Part shown: piece by piece, positions 4,407 through 23,872 of the stretch
Layout of the letters: each line of letters begins with the position of its first letter
Position numbering within the stretch: the first letter of the stretch is position 1
IMG/VR virus record: IMGVR_UViG_2541047699_000005
Direction: 5' to 3' (one strand)
Length of the DNA stretch: 28,826 nucleotides
DNA from: a virus
Taxonomy: Duplodnaviria > Heunggongvirae > Uroviricota > Caudoviricetes
Made by a program: the position numbers and the translations under genes
Notes under the pieces: generated by a model
What the model was told of the DNA's origin: nothing
The model's database searches: none
Seen by the model: only the letters and a program-made list of their open reading frames with translations

Positions 4407-5047
4407 TTGTCGGTATACCTCTCTCGTTTGCTCAGTTGTTCAGGAATATGGTGCAACAGCTCACCGTCGCCGCAGTAAATGGCGGCATGATTCGGCACCG
4501 ATGAACCAAAACAGCACAGCAGCACATCGCCCGGCTGCGCCGCTGACAACGGCACCTGATACAGCCCTGTGGCCTCCAGATTATCCAGATAGAGATTCTG
4601 GCCGTTACACCACCAGTCATCCTCACGATGAAAGTCCGGCATCTCAATCCCCGCCAGATGATAAGCATCCCGGAACAGCGTGTAACAGTCCGTCGCCCCG
4701 TGCTCAAAGCGCCGCCCGGTAAGATGCGGCACACAGCGGAATTTATGAATCTCACCCCGGCAGACCAGCCACCAAGGCAAATCGCTCTGCACCTGCAGCC
4801 GCCTGTCAGCCTCACTCAGCCAGGGCAGGCCACCGGGGTGGCTGTGGACCAGCGCCACAATCTCACCCTGCATCTCTGCCCGCAGCCAGTCCTCCGGCGA
4901 CATCCGGAAATACGCCTCCGGCTCACCGGAGATATTCACGCAGGGAAAATATCTTTCCCCTTCCGGCGTTCTCACCACGAAGCCGCACGACTCCGCTGGC
5001 GCACATCGCCGGGCGTGCGCCAGAATCGCTGATTCTGTCTGTGTCAT
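4304..5047 (-). CDS. K: Tail assembly protein K (lambda gpK-like, NlpC/P60 plus JAB/MPN-type domains)
   Basis: ORF-track frame 4304..5089; the HSHPGG motif region and a Cys/His peptidase-like signature are present. Start placed at the internal Met (MTQTESAILAHARR), 3 bp after the L stop; the upstream ATG at 5089 is an alternative. Confidence 0.8.
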   Translation of the reverse strand: MTQTESAILAHARRCAPAESCGFVVRTPEGERYFPCVNISGEPEAYFRMSPEDWLRAEMQGEIVALVHSHPGGLPWLSEADRRLQVQSDLPWWLVCRGEIHKFRCVPHLTGRRFEHGATDCYTLFRDAYHLAGIEMPDFHREDDWWCNGQNLYLDNLEATGLYQVPLSAAQPGDVLLCCFGSSVPNHAAIYCGDGELLHHIPEQLSKRERYTDKWQRRTHSLWRHRAWHASAFTGIYNDLAAASTFV

Positions 5048-5051
5048 GGGA

Positions 5052-5750
5052 TTACTGCGAAAGTTTGTTAATGGAAAGGAAGCCGCCAAAGTTGCCGACG
5101 TTATTGCGAAACTTACAGCCGCTCAGGCATTTGCTGCATTTATCCTTCGTGATATCGGACGTCGGCTGGTCATATTCATCCGCAACCGCCGGACCGTGAT
5201 AACCGCACTCATCACCGCGATAGGTCCAGGTGCAGGTGTTGGCCAGCATGGTACGTCCCGGAAAAACAGCACCATCCGTTTCCGTCGGCGTGGACAGTAC
5301 AAAAGAGGCACTCACCGCGCTCAGTTCGCTGCACTGCTCGATGCGCCAGCGGCTGATCACCTCCTGCTCTGGATCGGCTTCGCTGTTTCCGTTGACGAAG
5401 TTCACCACATCCAGAAAACGGGCGTAAACCTTACGCCTGACCACCGTTCCGCCGACCAGACTCTGCAGGTCTTCCGCCATCCCGGTGACCATGCCGTGCA
5501 GATTAGAGACTTTCAGCGTTGGCCTTGCACTGGCTCCTTTGCCGTTCATCTCAAATCCACTTCCCTGAATGGGATAGGCCTGATACTGCCGCCCCTGCCA
5601 GGTGACTGGTTCACCTTTTTCGTTCTGCTCATTACAGAAGAAATAACGATCTCCGCCGACCTCTGTCAGATCAATTTCCCAGAGCACGACCAGCGCGGAT
5701 TGCTCCGTTTTAGTGCACTCATTGAGTGTTTCCTGCTGTATATCCTGCAT
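5052..5750 (-). CDS. L: Minor tail protein L (lambda gpL-like)
   Basis: 232-aa ORF with a C-terminal cysteine cluster (CSKCLSGCKF) typical of the gpL Fe-S region; sits between M and K. Confidence 0.85.
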   Translation of the reverse strand: MQDIQQETLNECTKTEQSALVVLWEIDLTEVGGDRYFFCNEQNEKGEPVTWQGRQYQAYPIQGSGFEMNGKGASARPTLKVSNLHGMVTGMAEDLQSLVGGTVVRRKVYARFLDVVNFVNGNSEADPEQEVISRWRIEQCSELSAVSASFVLSTPTETDGAVFPGRTMLANTCTWTYRGDECGYHGPAVADEYDQPTSDITKDKCSKCLSGCKFRNNVGNFGGFLSINKLSQ

Positions 5751-16800: not shown

Positions 16801-18558
16801 TCACAGAATTAACAGGTCCTCATCAGGATCAAGCGTGGACAGAAAGTCATTCACGCCCCCTCCATTTACCAGAAAGCGGCTCATGGCTGTAAAAAGCGCA
16901 ACAGGGCCGTCGATTTTGGCTTCCGGCGTGGATTTATTCGGGAAGATGTTGTCGTTTTTGTCCGGTTTTACAGTAACGTTAGACATCATCCAGTTCATGA
17001 CCGGATGATTGCTGTGATGGAAACGCCCGGCATAAACCAGTGATTCCGTTTCCTTCATGGCCTCTGACAGATTGCGGACCGTCTGCGGAACCTCCACCAG
17101 CGGTATCCCTTCTTCAGCCAGTGCCAGGCTGAACTGCATTGCGCTCCACGGGTCAAATCCCAGTTCCCTGAGGTTTTCACCGCCAATCCATTCCAGTAAG
17201 TCACTTTTTATCTGAGCATGATCGATAACATCACCATCCGTCAGGATGAGCTTATCCATCTCCGCCCACTTCCGGTAAAGTTCTGCCTGCTGCCGCGAGC
17301 ATCGTTCCAGCCGTCCTTCCGGAAGCCAGAATTTAAAATCAGCATGAACATGTCCGTTATCGGTTCGCCAGAGTTTTGCCGCCGCACAGATATCAATCTT
17401 ATGAGCAAGGTCGACGCCGACCCACATGGGATATGTTTTCAGCTCATGTTGTGGAGCAATGTATTCGCACTTCTCCCACTTAATCATATCCATCCAGGCA
17501 GATTCGGCAGTGACCCACACATTCATGTGTTTGGTAAAAAAATTCACCCGCGCAGAGACCTGCTCCTTCGCTTTTTTCGCCAGACGACGCAGATCATCCC
17601 AGCGTTTACAGATGCCCAGGCCAGGATTCGCTTTCTGCCAGACCGTTTCATCAAACGGATCATCTCCCTCATCAAGCGTGTAAATGATCGCAAAGTAAGA
17701 GTCGTCTTTTACAGCGCCCTCCACGTCGCTGTTATAGCCTCGCAATACCTTGATGGCGTAATCACGCTGCTCGTAACAAATCCCTTCCTTGTTAAAGCCA
17801 GCCGTGGTGATACCAAATAACAGGGACTGCAGACGGGCACCGGTTGCCGTTTCCAGAACGTCCCACACGTCGCGGGTTTTATGTGCATGCAGCTCATCAA
17901 TAATGGCGCAGTGGATGTTCAGACCGTCCAGGTTGTTTGCATCCGAGGAAAGCGGTTCAAATTTTGATGCGCTCTGCTCCTGGTAAATCGCCAGCTTGTT
18001 GAAATCAAACAACCGCCCGAGTGTCGACCGGGCTTTTCTGACCATATTTTTGGCGTCTTCAAACACGATTCTGGCCTGGTCACGCGTGGTTGCGGCTGAA
18101 TACACCTCAGCTCCGCCTTCACTATCTGCCCCCGTCATATACAGGCCGATACCCGATGACAGTGTTGATTTTGCGTTTTTACGGGCGACTTCGTTGTACG
18201 CCGTCCGGAACCGGCGCACCATCACCGGACGTCCGCTGCCATCGCTGCGCATGACAACTTCCCCGGTTTCTTCATTGACCAGCGGAATGACAAAACCAAA
18301 AATATTAATGAGGATAAATACATGCCAGTCCATCAACTCAATGGGCTGGCCTGCCAGTACCCCTTTTACATGAGGCACAAATTTGTAGAAATTCAGGATG
18401 TGCTGCGCACGGGGTTCACTGAAATAAATCCCCCGCTTTTCGCCGTACTTCAGATCATCAAGAAAACGCTGGCAGGCCAGGCGGACAAATTCGCCAGCAA
18501 CAATTTCTCCTGCAACAACACGTTCGGCGTAGCGGATCCCGTCAGCCACTTTTGCCAT
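16801..18558 (-). CDS. Terminase large subunit
   Basis: 585-aa ORF with an N-terminal ATPase region and C-terminal nuclease-type region; its start overlaps the TerS stop (ATGA). Confidence 0.9.
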   Translation of the reverse strand: MAKVADGIRYAERVVAGEIVAGEFVRLACQRFLDDLKYGEKRGIYFSEPRAQHILNFYKFVPHVKGVLAGQPIELMDWHVFILINIFGFVIPLVNEETGEVVMRSDGSGRPVMVRRFRTAYNEVARKNAKSTLSSGIGLYMTGADSEGGAEVYSAATTRDQARIVFEDAKNMVRKARSTLGRLFDFNKLAIYQEQSASKFEPLSSDANNLDGLNIHCAIIDELHAHKTRDVWDVLETATGARLQSLLFGITTAGFNKEGICYEQRDYAIKVLRGYNSDVEGAVKDDSYFAIIYTLDEGDDPFDETVWQKANPGLGICKRWDDLRRLAKKAKEQVSARVNFFTKHMNVWVTAESAWMDMIKWEKCEYIAPQHELKTYPMWVGVDLAHKIDICAAAKLWRTDNGHVHADFKFWLPEGRLERCSRQQAELYRKWAEMDKLILTDGDVIDHAQIKSDLLEWIGGENLRELGFDPWSAMQFSLALAEEGIPLVEVPQTVRNLSEAMKETESLVYAGRFHHSNHPVMNWMMSNVTVKPDKNDNIFPNKSTPEAKIDGPVALFTAMSRFLVNGGGVNDFLSTLDPDEDLLIL

Positions 18559-19040
18559 CAGTCTCTCGCTTTTAAAAGCTCTGCCAGCGGATCAACATTA
18601 TCCGGTCCGGCGGTATTTACTTTTGCCCGGCTTGCCGGTGACATACCAAATTCTGCAAGCATCGCCCGGATCCGCTTCCAGGCATCCGCTTTCATCGCAG
18701 CAGCCGGGTGTGCCTTAATCAGCACATCACCGTTCTGCGTTTCCGAGCGGTAGGTGTACCCCTCAACATCGAGTGTTTCGCAGTGATGCCGGTATTCGGT
18801 ATAGGCTTCCACCAGTAGCTCAAGCGCACGCGCATCAAGCTGAGAAATGATCCCTTCCGCATTCAGCTCTTCCGCCATTCGCCTGAACCAGTACTTCCCC
18901 TGCGCCCCTAAATGTTGCGGAATTTTAGGGAGACCTTTTTCATCCTTTTTAGCGGTTTTTTTGAGGTCTTTAACTGGCCGCTTTGAGGGGTTGCCTCGTA
19001 TCAAATGCAGGCGTGGCGGGATTTTCGGGGGTCCAGACAT
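18558..19040 (-). CDS. Terminase small subunit (P27 family)
   Basis: 160-aa ORF (MSGPPKIPPRLHLIRGNPSKRP...) typical of P27-family small terminases that pair with an HNH endonuclease. Confidence 0.8.
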   Translation of the reverse strand: MSGPPKIPPRLHLIRGNPSKRPVKDLKKTAKKDEKGLPKIPQHLGAQGKYWFRRMAEELNAEGIISQLDARALELLVEAYTEYRHHCETLDVEGYTYRSETQNGDVLIKAHPAAAMKADAWKRIRAMLAEFGMSPASRAKVNTAGPDNVDPLAELLKARD

Positions 19041-19187
19041 AATCGGTTTTACCTATCAATCATTTGATCACATTCCAAAAAAAAGTTTTCGAACCTGCGG
19101 CGATGCGAGGAAAGGTCAGGCGGCGGTACTGAGCAGCCAGGGTTGCTGAGATTTGACCCGCCCCTCCCCTACAGATGGGAACTGTTA

Positions 19188-19538
19188 TCAATTGATGCGT
19201 TCGCGCGCTGTTTTTGCTTTATGACAGGGCCAGCACAGACTCTGCAGGTTACTGTCTGCATCTGTGCCACCATGAGCTTTCGGAATGATGTGGTCCACAG
19301 TTCTGGCTTCAACGGCTCTCCCATTGCGCAGGCAGTTCTGACACAGATGATTATCACGCTTCAGTATGCGCGCACGTATGGCATCCCATTTCGAGCCATA
19401 GCCACGCTGGTGGCGGCTCAGTCCGCGTTGATGCTGTACCCATCCTTCGCCACGATGTTTATCGCAGTAACCAGAACTGTCTGTGGTTGTACCTGCACAT
19501 CCACGCTTACGGCAGGCGCGTGGGATTAGTGCTGGCAT
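19188..19538 (-). CDS. HNH endonuclease (packaging-associated)
   Basis: 116-aa ORF with Cys-rich zinc-binding pairs and an HNH core (DHIIPKAHGGTDADSNLQSLCWPCH), adjacent to TerS as in HK97-like cos phages. Confidence 0.85.
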   Translation of the reverse strand: MPALIPRACRKRGCAGTTTDSSGYCDKHRGEGWVQHQRGLSRHQRGYGSKWDAIRARILKRDNHLCQNCLRNGRAVEARTVDHIIPKAHGGTDADSNLQSLCWPCHKAKTARERIN

Positions 19539-19676
19539 GTTTCGCCCTTATATAAATCAAAGGTGACCTGCATTGAGTATCTCCATGGAATAGATTTGCT
19601 GCTGATATGAGACAGATCAATAGACTTCATGAGCCAACGGGTGTAGATATTACTTTTTACTTCAGAGGGTTAACTC

Positions 19677-20216
19677 ATGGATATTAAAGATAAAATCAAT
19701 ACCATTTTGTTATGTGACATTGCCATCCACCTAGGTATCGAAACTGATATTGATCCACAGCTTGTTAAATATGCTGTGTCATCTGGTAATGATTGGGTTA
19801 TCAAGGCCGAATATTCACATTTGGATGTTGACGAACCAAGTAAAGAAGATCGTGATTTTGTTACTGCTGTCTTGAATATGTATCGCGGACTTTCCAATGC
19901 TTTCAGGAAACTTAGTGATGACGAGCAAAAAGAATTAGTCCGTGACCATCATCTAAAAATACATGATGGGGCAATTCAGCTCCCAGGTTTCGACGGTAAT
20001 AATGAATGCGATTACTTCAGTATCATTGAGGCATATCAGAAAATTGATCGCTTCCCCGAACAGAAACAGCCCATTGCCAATACTCATTCACGTACAGAAC
20101 ATCTCTATAACGCAATGCTTGATGAGTTTAAGAAAATTGACGCTGTAAATCGAAGCTGGGATTTATCGAAGGAAGAACTGGCATCCATTCTTTCCACAGC
20201 TCCACGCAGTTTCTAA
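19677..20216 (+). CDS. Moron gene on the opposite strand: 179-aa protein, possibly YfbU/UPF0304-like
   Basis: Only well-supported plus-strand gene in the phage backbone. AT-rich; GAGGG SD 7 nt before the ATG; followed by a hairpin terminator. Several blocks (MY..L, GFD, TH, LS..E..I) line up with E. coli YfbU as I recall it. Confidence 0.6.
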   Translation: MDIKDKINTILLCDIAIHLGIETDIDPQLVKYAVSSGNDWVIKAEYSHLDVDEPSKEDRDFVTAVLNMYRGLSNAFRKLSDDEQKELVRDHHLKIHDGAIQLPGFDGNNECDYFSIIEAYQKIDRFPEQKQPIANTHSRTEHLYNAMLDEFKKIDAVNRSWDLSKEELASILSTAPRSF

Positions 20217-20221
20217 GTGCT

Positions 20222-20488
20222 TTAGGCGGGTTTCCAACCCGCCTTATTATGCTCGTATATAGAGAAGGAAGCACCCAAATTAACCAGCGCGGATTTCTTT
20301 TCCTCAATACGGCTGTTAAGTTCAGCAACTGCATGCGGGCGTATGGCCTCAAGAAAAGCACTATATTGATAGGCAGACTGGATTGTCACACCAAGCCCTG
20401 CACCACTTTCCAGTATACCTTTCTGTCGCTGTAGCTCTTTCATCTCGTTATAGATGTAATGTGCGTTACTTAGGTTTTCTACGTTCAC
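20222..20488 (-). CDS. Hypothetical 88-aa protein (uncertain coding)
   Basis: ORF-track ORF with a GTG start and a weak, closely spaced SD; a possible -10 (GATAAT) lies upstream. It is convergent with the 179-aa gene. Confidence 0.3.
   Translation of the reverse strand: MNVENLSNAHYIYNEMKELQRQKGILESGAGLGVTIQSAYQYSAFLEAIRPHAVAELNSRIEEKKSALVNLGASFSIYEHNKAGWKPA
20225..20255. terminator. Palindromic hairpin with T-rich tail between convergent genes
   Basis: ggcgggtt-tcc-aacccgcc (20225-20243) followed by ttattat, starting 9 nt after the TAA of the 179-aa gene and overlapping the last codons of the minus-strand 88-aa ORF. Confidence 0.5.
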
Positions 20489-20643
20489 GCCCTAAGTTCT
20501 TCCTGCAGTTAGCCTGCACTGATTTGTTATGCGCCAATATGTCCCGCTTCGTCTGTTGCATTATCATAAGTAATAGCGTAGGTTGACACCTTGGCTCTCT
20601 TTCGCCACCGGCGAATCTTTAGCGGATTATCCTTGGCCGGTTT

Positions 20644-21126
20644 TTATCTGAGACATTGCTCACGAATGTATAGCTGTGCCCCTTCCAGTTGCTTCTGCAT
20701 CGTCATCAACCGTTCTCTGAGGGTGAAATAATCCCGTTCAGCGGTGTCTGCCAGTCTGGGGCTGGTTGCATTATCCACGCTGGTGGGTCCGGTGGCTTCA
20801 CGCACGGCTGCGGAGCAACTGGCATTGACCCGCAGGCGCTTACGACCAGCGGCAACATCAGCGCGCAGAGTTTCATTTTCAGCTTTCGCATTGGCTAATT
20901 CTCTCGAGTACTTTGCATCGAGCGCAGCAACATCACGCTGACGCTGTTGCATGTCAGCGATGGTGGCAGTCGCCTGCTTCAGCTCACTGACTTTTTTATC
21001 ACGCTGTTCTTTGTAGGCGATGGCGTTATCACGGTAATGATTGACCGCCCACGACAGGCAGACGATGGTGCAGATAACCAGAGTATAAATAATCGCTGCG
21101 ACTCTGCTCACTGATCTATCCCCCAA
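20644..21126 (-). CDS. Rz: Rz i-spanin
   Basis: 160-aa ORF with an N-terminal transmembrane segment followed by coiled coil, directly downstream of the endolysin, with Rz1 embedded. Confidence 0.85.
20706..20891 (-). CDS. Rz1: Rz1 o-spanin lipoprotein embedded in Rz in the +1 frame
   Basis: 61-aa ORF with a signal peptide, lipobox (VVSAC) and a proline-rich mature region, wholly inside Rz in a different frame. Confidence 0.8.
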
Positions 21127-21641
21127 CAGGCTAATGCGCTTTCCTGGTCACGACGAATAACCTGTCCATAGCAGTTATTTGAACGTATGCGGCAATCGCG
21201 CCCACCATCTTTTATCCACCAGCGAATCGCCTCGCATGCGCCCTTACGATCACCGGCATTCAGCCGCTTATAAAACGTCGACGGGAAACACTTACCGGGG
21301 CCAATGTTATAGGGACAGAATGACGCTATACCCGCTTTCTGTGGTTCGGTCAGTGGTACTTTAATATTGCGCTCTACCCATGCCAGCGCCTTATCACGTT
21401 CAATAGCGTTAACCTGGTCGCATTTTTCCTTCGACAGCTTCATTCCCGGTATGACGGGCTTACCATCCACCATTGTGGCACCCCGACAGATGGTCCAGAT
21501 GCCGGCCCCATCGCGGTATGCCGTTGTGTGGTTACCTTCTTTTTCATCCAGAAACTGGTCGAGAATATCAGGCGCGGGCGCACCGACGGCAATCAGTGCC
21601 AGAACGGCAGCCGACAGGCCGTATCTGATTTTTGCGTTCAT
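21108..21641 (-). CDS. R: SAR endolysin (T4-lysozyme-like muramidase with N-terminal signal-anchor-release domain)
   Basis: 177-aa ORF with a weakly hydrophobic Gly/Ala-rich N-terminal segment, then the E-x8-D-x5-T catalytic triad spacing ([16 protein letters not shown]). Confidence 0.85.
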
Positions 21642-21704
21642 GGATATTTATCAGGATTTATCGGTTTCTGCCCACGGACAGGTTTATCTGTTCCGGTCAG
21701 TGAC

Positions 21705-22055
21705 TTAAGGTTGTGATTCCGGAGGAGTCTTCAGAGAACCAGTAATTCTTCCTGGTAGCTTTCCTTTGTAGGTTATCCACACATTCTGCGCCTCTAAAAT
21801 TACGGGGCGCTTTTCCGGCGACTGCTCATCCCCTTCACATAACCCGGCAGCAACATCCAGGAAGACCTGTCTGATGCTCCTTCTGGCTGCTGCCTCATAA
21901 AACCCCAGCGCGGCACCTTCAACACGGTCCAGCGAGATGTCCAGGTCAAAAATTTCACCGTCAAAGCGTTTTTTGTCCCGTAACGCTAAAGTTACCGTAA
22001 CTTTATTCTCAAAATTGCGGATCCCTTTCACAATCAGTTCATAGTTTTGAGTCAT
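21705..22055 (-). CDS. YdfR-like (DUF1327-type) protein of unknown function inside the lysis cassette
   Basis: 116-aa ORF between holin and endolysin on the same strand; the position matches ydfR between essQ and rrrQ in the E. coli Qin prophage as I recall the gene order. Confidence 0.5.
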   Translation of the reverse strand: MTQNYELIVKGIRNFENKVTVTLALRDKKRFDGEIFDLDISLDRVEGAALGFYEAAARRSIRQVFLDVAAGLCEGDEQSPEKRPVILEAQNVWITYKGKLPGRITGSLKTPPESQP

Positions 22056-22059
22056 TGAA

Positions 22060-22275
22060 TTACTCTCCCCGTGCAGCCTTACGACGGTCCTCTCTGATTT
22101 TGAAATACAGGTTAGTCAGATATGTCAGGAAGCCCAGAACCAGACTCCCCAGTACACCAATCGCAGCCCACTGTGACGGACTGACCTGATCAAGCCACTG
22201 TAAAAACCAGTAGCCAGCACTGCCTGCGGAGGTGCCGTAGGCAATGCCCGTTGAAATTTTATCCATGGATTTCAT
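22060..22275 (-). CDS. S: Class II holin (phage 21 S-type pinholin)
   Basis: In-frame Met gives [71 protein letters not shown] (71 aa), with two transmembrane domains and the dual-start Met-Lys-Ser-Met motif; GGAGGTG SD upstream. Confidence 0.85.
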
Positions 22276-22412
22276 AGCCTCACCTCCGCAGCGAACGGAT
22301 GGCGTAGTTATAAGGGGAGCGAAAAAGAAAGAATGCGCGATTGCGCAATATGGTAACGTCAGGGTATTATCCACTGGCTGAATAGATCACTTCACGTTTT
22401 TTGTTCCTTGCC

Positions 22413-22440
22413 GCCCGTATCCATATGCGGGCTTTTTTTT
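22413..22440 (+). terminator. Plus-strand intrinsic terminator (hairpin plus T8)
   Basis: gcccgtat-ccat-atgcgggc stem-loop (one G-U pair) followed by eight T; the orientation is opposite to all neighbouring genes. Confidence 0.5.
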
Positions 22441-22446
22441 GCATGT

Positions 22447-22476
22447 AAAAAGGCCCCAACACATGTGCGTGGGGCC
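22447..22476 (-). terminator. Minus-strand terminator-like hairpin back-to-back with the plus-strand one
   Basis: Minus RNA ggcccca-(11-nt loop)-uggggcc followed by UUUUU, in the leader between the tRNA operon and the holin gene. Confidence 0.4.
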
Positions 22477-22676
22477 TGAGAGTATACATGGTTTCAGTCA
22501 ACTGCATGGTGCCGGGTGCCTCCCGGTGAATTCAGTACCAGCACCTGAATCCGCGATTATCCCATATACCTACTCGCTGATTGCCCCTCCGCACAGGGGG
22601 ATTCACCATGCCAGTTTCTTTTAACAAACTCCCCGCAAAACAGACAACTGTCAACCGTCTGAATTGTGAGACATTT

Positions 22677-22701
22677 AAAAAAAAGGCCCGCAAAAGCGAG
22701 C
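22677..22701 (-). terminator. Intrinsic terminator ending the tRNA operon
   Basis: Minus RNA ggcucgc-UUUU-gcgggcc followed by seven or eight U, starting 15 nt after the CCA end of tRNA-Arg(UCU). Confidence 0.55.
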
Positions 22702-22715
22702 CGGGAAAAATAAGT

Positions 22716-22792
22716 CTGGCGCGTTGTACTGGATTCGAACCAGTGACCGATTGCTTAGAAGGCAATTGCTCTGTCCGGTTGAGCTAACAACG
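22716..22792 (-). tRNA. tRNA-Arg (anticodon UCU), CCA encoded
   Basis: Hand-folded cloverleaf: acceptor GCGTTGT/ACAACGC, D-stem GCTC/GAGC, anticodon stem ATTGC/GCAAT with loop CTTCTAA, T-loop TTCGAAT, discriminator G, CCA. Confidence 0.85.
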
Positions 22793-22805
22793 CAGGGTAC
22801 AGATA

Positions 22806-22882
22806 ATGGACCGCCATCGAGGACTCGAACCCCGCGCAACCAGCTTCGAAGGCTGGTGCTCTATCCTGATGAGCTAATGGCG
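22806..22882 (-). tRNA. tRNA-Arg (anticodon UCG), CCA encoded
   Basis: Hand-folded cloverleaf: acceptor CCGCCAT/ATGGCGG, D-stem GCTC/GAGC, anticodon stem CCAGC/GCTGG with loop CTTCGAA, T-loop TTCGAGT, CCA. Confidence 0.8.
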
Positions 22883-22889
22883 GTATGTG

Positions 22890-22965
22890 ATGGTGGCCCT
22901 TGCTGGATTTGAACCAGCGACCTGGCGATTATGAGTCGCTCGCTCTCACCTCTGAGCTAAAGGGC
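22890..22965 (-). tRNA. tRNA-Ile2 (anticodon CAU, lysidine-type, reads AUA)
   Basis: Cloverleaf with anticodon loop CTCATAA; overall sequence GGCCCTTTAGCTCAGAGGTGAGAGCGAGCGACTCATAATCGCC...CCA is very close to E. coli tRNA-Ile2 (ileX) as recalled, so it is read as Ile rather than Met. Confidence 0.8.
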
Positions 22966-22974
22966 CGGGCGCAG

Positions 22975-23003
22975 GATAATAACGTTACGAAATCAATGTT
23001 GCA
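22975..23003 (-). promoter_or_regulatory. Candidate sigma-70 promoter of the tRNA operon
   Basis: On the minus strand: -35 TTGCAA, 17-bp spacer, -10 TATTAT, GC-rich discriminator (CCTGCGCCC); the predicted start is 2-3 nt before the mature tRNA-Ile 5' end. Confidence 0.45.
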
Positions 23004-23084
23004 AGCATTCAAAAATCACCTGGTTAAAAATCACCCTTAGCTCCTCCACCAGCGCATTCACCATGTCTATCCGAGATAAGTGGC

Positions 23085-23123
23085 ACAAAAAAACCCGCTT
23101 GTGGGCGGGTTTTGTTTGCTTTT
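23085..23123. terminator. Bidirectional intrinsic terminator downstream of the Q-like gene (candidate tR')
   Basis: Hairpin acccgc-ttgtgg-gcgggt flanked by A7 on one side and a T-rich tract on the other, about 70-90 bp downstream of the Q stop. Confidence 0.5.
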
Positions 23124-23164
23124 GCCATCACGTACAAAATCGGCAAAATATCAGATTTGCATGA

Positions 23165-23193
23165 AATATATGCCTTTCAATCTACTTTTGCAA
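23165..23193 (-). promoter_or_regulatory. Candidate late promoter (pR'-like) overlapping the end of the Q-like gene
   Basis: On the minus strand: -35 TTGCAA, 17-bp spacer, -10 TATATT. The predicted transcript would run about 70-75 nt to the terminator at 23085-23110, giving a short 6S-like RNA. Confidence 0.4.
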
Positions 23194-23872
23194 CACTTTG
23201 CTTTGAAAATGCCGCCTTTTGTTTTGAACGTGTTCTCATTACAAACAATAAAGCCTCACTATCCAGTCGTTGAAAAATGTGTTTCATTGCAACCCAGTGA
23301 CGAGTAAATGTTTTGGACCAGTTTTTAGTTGTCACTCCCGCCAGTAATGCCAGCTCCTGGTATTCATAACCTTCCCCACCAAAAAGTTCTGCTTTTACTG
23401 CCTGCGCCGCCAGCCAGATTAATTTTTTCAGGCGTTCCTGCGTTTTCCCTGCAATTTTTCTGGTACCGGATTGAGTATTAAATTCATTCCACGCCCACTG
23501 TGTTATCGCGATCTGATATTCCCAACAAATACTCCCGCCGTAACACCACAACAACCAGGCTTTATGATGCTCTTCAAGAGACAGCAAAGCCCGCCGCCAT
23601 GATGATGTCGAAAACTCAACCGGGCTGACCAGGGCAATTGATGAGCCATTCGCCAGTGATTGTTTTCCCGGGATTGGTGGATTATCCCGCGTTATCATTT
23701 TTCCAGTCACTTCATCGCGGTACCGGATTTTTTTTCGCCTGTAACGCCCTGTATCGAACATGGCATTCTCCTGCCAGGCTTCAAGCTGACCTTTTGTTGC
23801 CCCACTCAAATCAGCGGTGGCGATAATGAGCTGCTCACGCACAAACTGTAAATACTGGTTATTCATGCGCAC
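23177..23872 (-). CDS. Putative late-gene antiterminator Q-like protein
   Basis: 231-aa ORF immediately upstream of the candidate late promoter/terminator and lysis genes, in the position of quuQ in Qin-like prophages. Assignment is by position; I do not recognise the sequence as lambda Q. Confidence 0.55.
   Translation of the reverse strand: MRMNNQYLQFVREQLIIATADLSGATKGQLEAWQENAMFDTGRYRRKKIRYRDEVTGKMITRDNPPIPGKQSLANGSSIALVSPVEFSTSSWRRALLSLEEHHKAWLLWCYGGSICWEYQIAITQWAWNEFNTQSGTRKIAGKTQERLKKLIWLAAQAVKAELFGGEGYEYQELALLAGVTTKNWSKTFTRHWVAMKHIFQRLDSEALLFVMRTRSKQKAAFSKQSVAKVD

Follow-up and report, generated by a model that had tools for sequence, protein, structure and literature searches.

The virus record IMGVR_UViG_2541047699_000005 (Caudoviricetes; 28,826 nucleotides, hereafter the window) carries between its packaging module and its lysis cassette a gene of 179 amino acids (aa) that belongs to the YfbU family. 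The locus is a moron lodged in a variable slot, from the lysis cassette to the HNH/terminase module, of an HK97/lambda-like Escherichia coli prophage. The gene is very probably an autonomous cargo that acts outside the phage cycle. For the anti-phage function of its product, suggested by analogy with the Lactococcus system Kamadhenu, the balance is close to even. The full proposal, that of a stand-alone protein of YfbU fold expressed in the lysogen as an anti-phage factor, may well hold but falls slightly short of being probable.

Family, fold and conserved motif

The 179-aa protein matches Pfam PF03887 (YfbU) over residues 46-172 with 46.3 bits against a gathering threshold of 25 (E 6.5e-12), and it matches PHROG 6084, a family of unknown function, from end to end. 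In the PDB, YfbU was missed by a search with the single sequence and was found by profile alone: a profile built from 30 homologues matches E. coli YfbU (1WPB/4LR3) with an E-value of 3e-9, over residues 54-173 only. Modelling predicts the full two-domain all-helical YfbU fold, and a search of viral structures in BFVD returned just one further viral protein with that fold. The distant kinship to YfbU/UPF0304 proposed in an earlier note, which had been made from the sequence alone, is thus borne out by hidden Markov model (HMM) and predicted fold. The profile-HMM and structure checks that it suggested were run on both proteins of the locus and assigned the 179-aa protein to the YfbU family and fold and its convergent 88-aa neighbour to PHROG 5415, without a fold match. 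The equivalog model for chromosomal YfbU, NCBIfam NF003936, was not reached by the 179-aa protein (34.8 bits against a cut-off of 90). No hydrophobic or transmembrane segment was found in it, and it is predicted to be soluble and cytoplasmic.

Among the 30 homologues of the close family, C13, W40, G104-F105-D106, N109, E110, H137 and Y144 are invariant. The family-wide signature GFDxxxE...Y...R[FY]...N[ST]H...Y..ML is present in the 179-aa protein; every one of the 75 aligned sequences has G104, F105 and D106, and no fewer than 72 have E110, N135, H137 and Y113. Mobile copies from both main clades of the family (phage, plasmid and Kamadhenu-like) read GFDGNNE...N[ST]H, whereas the housekeeping E. 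coli YfbU reads GFDAATE...NAQ. The polar cluster GFDGNNE...N-T-H (D106, N108, N109, E110, N135, H137) is the likely functional site.

The window protein and chromosomal E. coli YfbU (PDB 1WPB, 4LR3) have 15% aligned identity, and the N-terminal 53 residues of the former cannot be aligned in sequence to the latter. Both PDB entries, 1WPB and 4LR3, contain 16 chains. The chromosomal gene lies in a housekeeping context, yfbV-yfbU-hxpA, and has a degenerate motif, whereas the window gene lies in a prophage late region.

Kamadhenu as an experimental precedent

Kamadhenu is a 180-aa single-gene abortive-infection system with a YfbU domain, found on the Lactococcus plasmid pUCCL624 (PMC11381338, PMC12184496). 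When constitutively expressed, it confers full resistance to all Skunavirus and Ceduovirus phages tested. All escape mutants had a changed Sak-like single-strand annealing protein, the altered residue being G22 (PMC12184496). Phage DNA replication, transcription and translation were unaffected, suggesting a later step (PMC13064643).

Both Kamadhenu and the window protein are single soluble proteins of about 180 aa that consist almost entirely of the YfbU domain (PF03887) and are borne on a mobile element. The window protein has the same architecture: 179 aa, a single YfbU domain, carriage by a prophage and no conserved partner. The comparison sequence was a 180-aa homologue rebuilt across a frameshift from the sister plasmid pUCCL629C and is not exactly Kamadhenu; it has the motif GFDGN(N/E)E...NSH in common with the window protein. 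Their N-terminal domains differ in sequence, and Kamadhenu comes from a Gram-positive plasmid while the window gene sits in the late-region slot of a Gram-negative prophage. The precedent and the common motif would together lend family support, by analogy, to an anti-phage role. In pUCCL629C itself, a frameshift of one base divides the YfbU gene (L184 4257-4798) between two coding sequences annotated 'YfbU family protein', either a pseudogene or a sequencing error.

Neither window protein matched PADLOC-DB v2.0.0 at E up to 1, nor did chromosomal E. coli YfbU match PADLOC; this version, of 2023, is older than Kamadhenu, whose rebuilt homologue likewise scores nothing in it. The earlier note knew of no described function for a phage-borne YfbU-like protein. 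This still applies to the phage-borne copies, as no paper was found in the literature on the enterobacterial proteins (including WP_000351660 and WP_001100260), but not to the family, given Kamadhenu; literature searches on UPF0304 and PF03887 yielded nothing further than the Kamadhenu papers. Its suggestion of an undescribed accessory or defence system has to be narrowed in the same way: a moron cargo at the bor position is a plausible accessory or defence gene, but its family already has a defence member.

The cargo slot

Phage lambda carries bor in the corresponding slot. The features of the locus in the window and of its borders are as follows.

19677-20216, plus strand: YfbU-like cargo gene, 179 aa; clade B, enterobacterial prophage subgroup, PHROG 6084
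20222-20488, minus strand: 88-aa open reading frame (ORF), PHROG 5415; GTG start, core 20261-20488, read-through tail 20225-20260
19539-19676, plus strand: intergenic region 5' of the YfbU-like gene, with weak promoter-like elements and a Shine-Dalgarno sequence
19621-19626 and 19646-19651, plus strand: TAGACT and GATATT, promoter-like, weak
19664-19669, plus strand: Shine-Dalgarno sequence AGAGGG of the YfbU-like gene
20224-20244, plus strand: GC-rich hairpin 8 nt past the YfbU-like stop codon, likely intrinsic terminator of the plus-strand transcript
20489-20643, minus strand: noncoding spacer from the small ORF to Rz, with the relic of a foreign o-spanin 3' end
19188-19538, minus strand: HNH endonuclease of the packaging module, left slot boundary (Pfam HNH, E 1.9e-16)
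18558-19040, minus strand: small terminase, P27-type
16801-18558, minus strand: large terminase
20644-21126, minus strand: Rz i-spanin, right slot boundary and last gene of the phage's own lysis cassette (Pfam Phage_lysis, E 1.9e-49)
20706-20891: Rz1, embedded in Rz

Related phages without the insert align by blastn up to 19538 and resume at 20645-20674. The whole region is present in only two records of the phage collection, the others matching the HNH side and the Rz side alone. The slot is empty in phi467, where 42 bp separate HNH from Rz, and in vB_EcoS-640R1 it holds bor in exactly the corresponding place, on the opposite strand; bor is annotated as a virulence determinant in its phage record. 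The full locus was found in 224 of 5426 complete E. coli genomes (about 4%), mostly at 99-100% identity, and is annotated there as 'YfbU family protein' and 'hypothetical protein'. Over 19600-20200 the GC content falls to 0.38-0.40, the flanks having about 0.51-0.54; the YfbU-like gene itself has 0.39 and the whole window 0.52. A variable slot, absence from close relatives and a composition unlike that of the backbone are the marks of a moron.

In the near-identical RefSeq prophages (E. coli CE10, strain 4/4), no coding sequence other than the YfbU gene is on the plus strand over the stretch that starts at the tail genes and extends past the Q antiterminator gene; Q, three tRNA genes and all late genes are on the minus strand, upstream. 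The earlier note was right to call it the only plus-strand gene of the backbone, across the structural, lysis and late region of those prophages, and also in its placement of the two ORFs, which agrees with the ORF listing, in the lower GC than that of the neighbours and in the gene's own Shine-Dalgarno sequence. The hotspot that it saw at the bor position holds as a variable slot, with phi467 empty and 640R1 carrying bor, but not as a proven defence hotspot.

As with lambda bor, the gene is placed between Rz/Rz1 and the packaging genes and opposite to the late genes. It resembles lambdoid morons in its own likely terminator, low GC and presence/absence polymorphism, bor itself being found here in a sister phage. 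Unlike Bor, an outer-membrane lipoprotein, the window protein is predicted to be cytoplasmic, and there is no sequence or fold kinship between the two.

The right side of the insert keeps a trace of its origin. Blastn homology to Klebsiella prophages is unbroken over 18515-20555; it extends 67 bp past the small ORF, entering the o-spanin ORF of those prophages, and 20505-20555 also matches an Enterobacter Rz1-like ORF. The segment at 20489-20555, homologous to the 3' end of the o-spanin gene of Klebsiella/Enterobacter-type lysis cassettes, is a recombination scar. It indicates that HNH and the YfbU-like gene came together with the small ORF, next to a different lysis cassette.

Relatives and evolution of the YfbU-like gene

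Homologues at 50-98% identity are few (44 clusters), and the enterobacterial prophage group comprises only three full-length clusters. An exhaustive profile search returned 2,112 clusters (at 50% identity) with E at or below 1e-3, of which 850 were at or below 1e-10. Each close homologue whose context was inspected is in a prophage, between lysis cassette and terminase and on the strand opposite to the late genes. The Klebsiella copy (94% identity) adjoins an HNH/P27-type terminase module, the Enterobacter copy (58%) a lambda-type Nu1/GpA terminase, and a Providencia prophage has a copy of 50% identity. The slot position is thus consistent in E. coli, Klebsiella, Enterobacter and Providencia across two terminase types and several lysis cassettes, and in each genus the GC of the cargo is 10-15 points below that of the surrounding phage.

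Between E. coli and Klebsiella, DNA identity is 93.7% for the cargo gene (window 19677-20216 against Klebsiella locus L012 5273-5812), compared with 71.6% for HNH, 63% for the small terminase and 82.9% for the small ORF. The gap to HNH and the small terminase indicates that the cargo gene moved between phages more recently than the backbones diverged. The lower identity of HNH, small terminase and small ORF points to a recent exchange of the cargo alone. For the same pair of genera, the ratio of nonsynonymous to synonymous substitution rates (dN/dS) of the cargo gene is 0.12, so the YfbU-like gene is under purifying selection; its length of 179-180 aa is retained down to 50% identity.

Two main clades, A and B, were distinguished. 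Clade A holds chromosomal E. coli YfbU, in the context ackA-yfbV-yfbU-hxpA, together with Enterococcus plasmid copies, copies on small Acinetobacter plasmids (one adjoining an Abi_2 protein) and the Kamadhenu-like gene of pUCCL629C. An Enterococcus clade-A gene (L186 3001-3519) is flanked by IS1216 copies, and 253 PLSDB plasmid records were noted for it. To clade B belong the window protein and the other prophage copies, along with a large set of sequences from diverse Proteobacteria (25-36% full-length identity) that have the N-terminal LLCD...W domain and the motif in common with the window protein.

In 29 of 80 loci of the diverse-Proteobacteria set, the YfbU-like gene is preceded, on the same strand and about 30 nt upstream, by a gene for a partner that is about 166 aa long and has a single hydrophobic helix, at its N-terminus. 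The pair looks like an uncharacterised two-gene module with a membrane-anchored component. The partner was seen in Pseudomonas, Psychrobacter, Pseudoalteromonas and others (L032-L101) and belongs to no known family. One example is the following.

L039 4468-4968: partner gene, upstream of the YfbU-like gene at 4971-5537

About 20 of the best 150 clade-B representatives are longer (225-239 aa), with about 55 additional residues at the N-terminus that look like a ribbon-helix-helix (RHH) DNA-binding domain; the best PDB match of this extension, the RHH of NikR, is weak (E 0.12). Examples are these.

P0190, P0194, P0223, P0224, P0232 and P0299: proteins with the RHH-like extension
L060 1642-2361 and L092 3999-4703: genes with the RHH-like extension

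These relatives with a partner or an RHH-like extension are the closest kin outside enterobacterial prophages, but the window protein has neither. An HMM search of the window and of 23 prophage loci turned up no homologue of the membrane partner, and both the partner and the RHH-like extension are missing from the other prophage loci as well as from the window.

An FRG/PDC-S15 neighbour occurs in six clade-B loci. In the P2-like Yersinia phage vB_YenM_324 (L189 3956-4534), a 32%-identical YfbU-like copy is found in an accessory region past the tail-fibre genes gpH and gpG. Ahead of it come genes for a hypothetical protein of 551 aa and for an 'adenine glycosylase'; PADLOC gave no match to any of these. 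Neighbourhoods of defence type such as those with Abi_2 and FRG/PDC-S15, the Yersinia phage accessory region and the Enterococcus plasmids would favour an anti-phage reading of the window gene.

Transcription signals and proposed mode of action

The hairpin at 20224-20244 has a folding energy of -17.6 kcal/mol (z -3.4) and is followed on the plus strand by TTATTATG, the U-tract being modest. Compensatory changes seen in the Klebsiella and IMG/VR homologues preserve its stem (GGCGGGT/ACCCGCC against GGCGGGG/CCCCGCC). It was not called by a terminator scan. No T-run follows the hairpin on the minus strand; it should therefore stop the cargo transcript and not late transcription. The gene's own terminator, as claimed in the earlier note, is upheld by the z score and the compensatory changes, less so by the modest U-tract and the negative scan, and the hairpin is likely to be an intrinsic terminator of the plus-strand cargo transcript.

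The promoter proposed in that note, TAGACT-18 bp-GATATT, proved weak. The spacer is 19 nt by our count, and a consensus promoter scan of the region gave no plus-strand site, with match counts not above shuffle expectation. The upstream block is nevertheless conserved: 19610-19660 is almost invariant in five diverged phages whose flanking genes are just 63-84% identical, which is compatible with a promoter function that we infer for this block. No conserved LexA-type box was seen by eye in 19539-19676.

Accordingly with the analogy drawn above, the 179-aa protein would be made in the lysogen from its own weak conserved upstream region, against the direction of late transcription, its transcript ending at its own hairpin. 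It would act alone, by abortive infection or superinfection exclusion as Kamadhenu might lead one to expect, and the lead from Kamadhenu is that phage recombination proteins could be sensed and a late block then imposed. Since HNH and terminase lie beyond the cargo gene on the minus strand, late transcription must cross the cargo in antisense. Upon prophage induction, Q-antiterminated transcription would do so and would tend to silence it.

A broader version makes of the clade-B branch a set of immune sensors or effectors built around GFDGNNE...NxH, either stand-alone, partner-coupled or RHH-fused, in which the stand-alone form would sense the single-strand annealing protein and abort infection late, the resident phage being spared by antisense silencing. 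This extension is doubtful.

Weighing the anti-phage reading and its alternatives

Several points weigh against an anti-phage factor expressed in the lysogen. The experimental precedent lies wholly outside the clade of the window protein: the Kamadhenu-like sequence, an approximate query, belongs to the opposite main clade and has 31% identity to it over 70 residues. No PADLOC model matches the window protein, in a database older than Kamadhenu, and the YfbU family as a whole is without an established mechanism. The promoter scan found no consensus sigma-70 promoter, and expression in the lysogen is presumptive. The other cargos of the slot have no known defence annotation, and the slot is no proven defence hotspot. 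Finally, many clade-B relatives come with a membrane-anchored partner or an RHH-like fusion, and a stand-alone effector role is not guaranteed.

A moron of host physiology might instead alter the response of the lysogen to DNA damage or stress, for example through a cell-death or survival pathway, and so be of use to the host or tune induction without blocking other phages. Chromosomal E. coli yfbU was reported to be necessary for mazEF-linked death after DNA damage (PMC2646832), the RHH-like DNA-binding extension of some relatives suggests regulatory roles, and bor, in the equivalent slot, is a virulence determinant by annotation and no phage-defence gene. Even so, we hold this explanation to be rather improbable.

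A phage-cycle accessory or counter-defence gene, serving packaging, lysis timing or the inhibition of host defences, would agree with the position between the lysis and packaging modules, adjoining HNH even in locus L179, and with a Kamadhenu that appears to act late in infection (PMC13064643). The strand is, however, opposite to that of every late gene, with late transcription antisense to it, and the gene is missing from closely related viable phages. It is also found with two unrelated terminase types, and the YfbU-like protein is therefore no packaging component. With low GC and recent exchange further marking it as cargo, a role in the phage cycle is quite unlikely.

Cargo without current benefit, that is a hitch-hiking or selfish gene kept by recombination in a permissive slot, would account for the absence of a known phenotype and for a slot that accepts many unrelated ORFs of unknown function. 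It is very unlikely in view of the strong purifying selection, the retained length, the invariant motif, the conserved upstream region and terminator and the wide spread in two genera. The fourth alternative, a two-gene module, is considered along with the small ORF.

The 88-aa ORF

The convergent 88-aa ORF is a conserved small phage gene of the late strand that borders the slot, and it is no partner of the YfbU-like gene. PHROG 5415 matches its residues 1-76 (E 2e-38), and its homologues form 276 clusters, nearly all of 76 aa, in Citrobacter, Salmonella, Klebsiella and E. coli. In the E. coli form, the ancestral TAA has become ATA, adding 12 codons (20225-20260) that run through the hairpin. 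The hairpin therefore lies in the last codons of this ORF after loss of the ancestral stop and is not a common terminator for both genes, as the earlier note had it. AlphaFold2 models the 88-aa protein as a hairpin of two helices (pLDDT 77), the loop of which carries the conserved sequence GAGLGVTIQS; no meaningful PDB match to it was found, the best Foldseek E-value being 1.3.

Other prophages have the 76-aa gene immediately after the spanin genes, or overlapping them, in several different lysis cassettes, and past it lies an opposite-strand ORF of 146 aa in Salmonella, of 192 aa in Citrobacter and YfbU-like in Klebsiella. Eighty IMG/VR contigs with a homologue of the small ORF were compared, 23 of them near-identical copies of the window locus and 57 diverged. 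A YfbU-like gene is present in 10 of the 57 and absent from 47, which instead have ORFs of 126, 131, 157, 161, 196/226 or 204 aa, or no ORF. Conversely, the Enterobacter (58%) and Providencia (50%) YfbU-like genes directly adjoin spanin genes, with no homologue of the small ORF there, and in L179 the YfbU-like gene adjoins HNH, 1.5 kb from the small ORF. An obligate YfbU/88-aa pair was rejected on these three grounds.

The earlier note's two-gene locus is contradicted by this distribution. A module with the 88-aa protein, either toxin and antidote or defence and late-expressed self-immunity, might be read from the adjacent, convergent arrangement in E. coli and Klebsiella prophages and from a small gene on the late strand, as would befit self-immunity during induction, but the distribution largely refutes it, the two genes did not diverge in step (DNA identity of 93.7% for the YfbU-like gene and 82.9% for the small ORF), and it is barely credible.

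Other occupants of the slot

In prophages of Salmonella, Citrobacter and others, the slot immediately downstream of the 76-aa gene is filled by opposite-strand ORFs of 126-204 aa, at least seven of them unrelated. The alternative ORFs, all on the minus strand in the coordinates of their loci, are these.

L130 3277-3750
L134 3323-3703
L145 3264-3854
L153 3287-3682
L156 3274-3759
L181 3306-3920
L017 4277-4717
L019 4264-4842

The eight alternative cargo proteins have no significant Pfam or PADLOC match, and one of them matches a PHROG, of unknown function only. The 204-aa ORF of L181 gave a faint match to a CARF/HEPN model (E 0.004). That these cargos might be divergent YfbU proteins was ruled out by hhalign (probability below 1%). 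The slot downstream of a conserved 76-aa late gene thus yields a compact list of at least seven further unannotated opposite-strand cargos.

Significance

Although the structure of YfbU was solved in 2004, its mechanism is still lacking, and the functional links of the family are limited to a cell-death phenotype in E. coli and one abortive-infection system in Lactococcus. Pfam, PHROGs and RefSeq already recognise the gene as a member of the YfbU family, and a defence role was already known in one distant member. What is new is a member in a different clade and in a different type of mobile element, not a new kind of system. A copy carried by E. coli (about 4% of complete genomes) and Klebsiella prophages in a well-understood lambda-like slot offers tractable genetics for the function of the family, and it would make testable what triggers the protein, what its conserved acidic/histidine motif does and how the prophage avoids its own defence. 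If the reading of the whole clade-B branch were true, the prophage-borne protein would give a large uncharacterised YfbU branch, in a superfamily of about 2,100 clusters, its first tractable representative from E. coli/Klebsiella; should the gene have no defence role, it would be one more moron of unknown function.

Neighbouring features

Beyond Rz/Rz1, the minus strand carries a lysozyme, a YdfR/DUF1327 protein and a holin according to the ORF listing and Pfam. An Rfam scan of 19000-23500 found no family inside the cargo locus. At 22441-22640 and 22717-22966 of the window, both on the minus strand, a full-length match to the small RNA STnc100 (140 bits) and the tRNA genes Arg-tct, Arg-tcg and Met-cat were detected. 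The STnc100 match and the three tRNA genes lie in the late-operon leader, from the Q antiterminator gene to the holin. In the near-identical prophage of E. coli strain 4/4 (L188 16392-16547), a hokD type I toxin gene is annotated upstream of Q.

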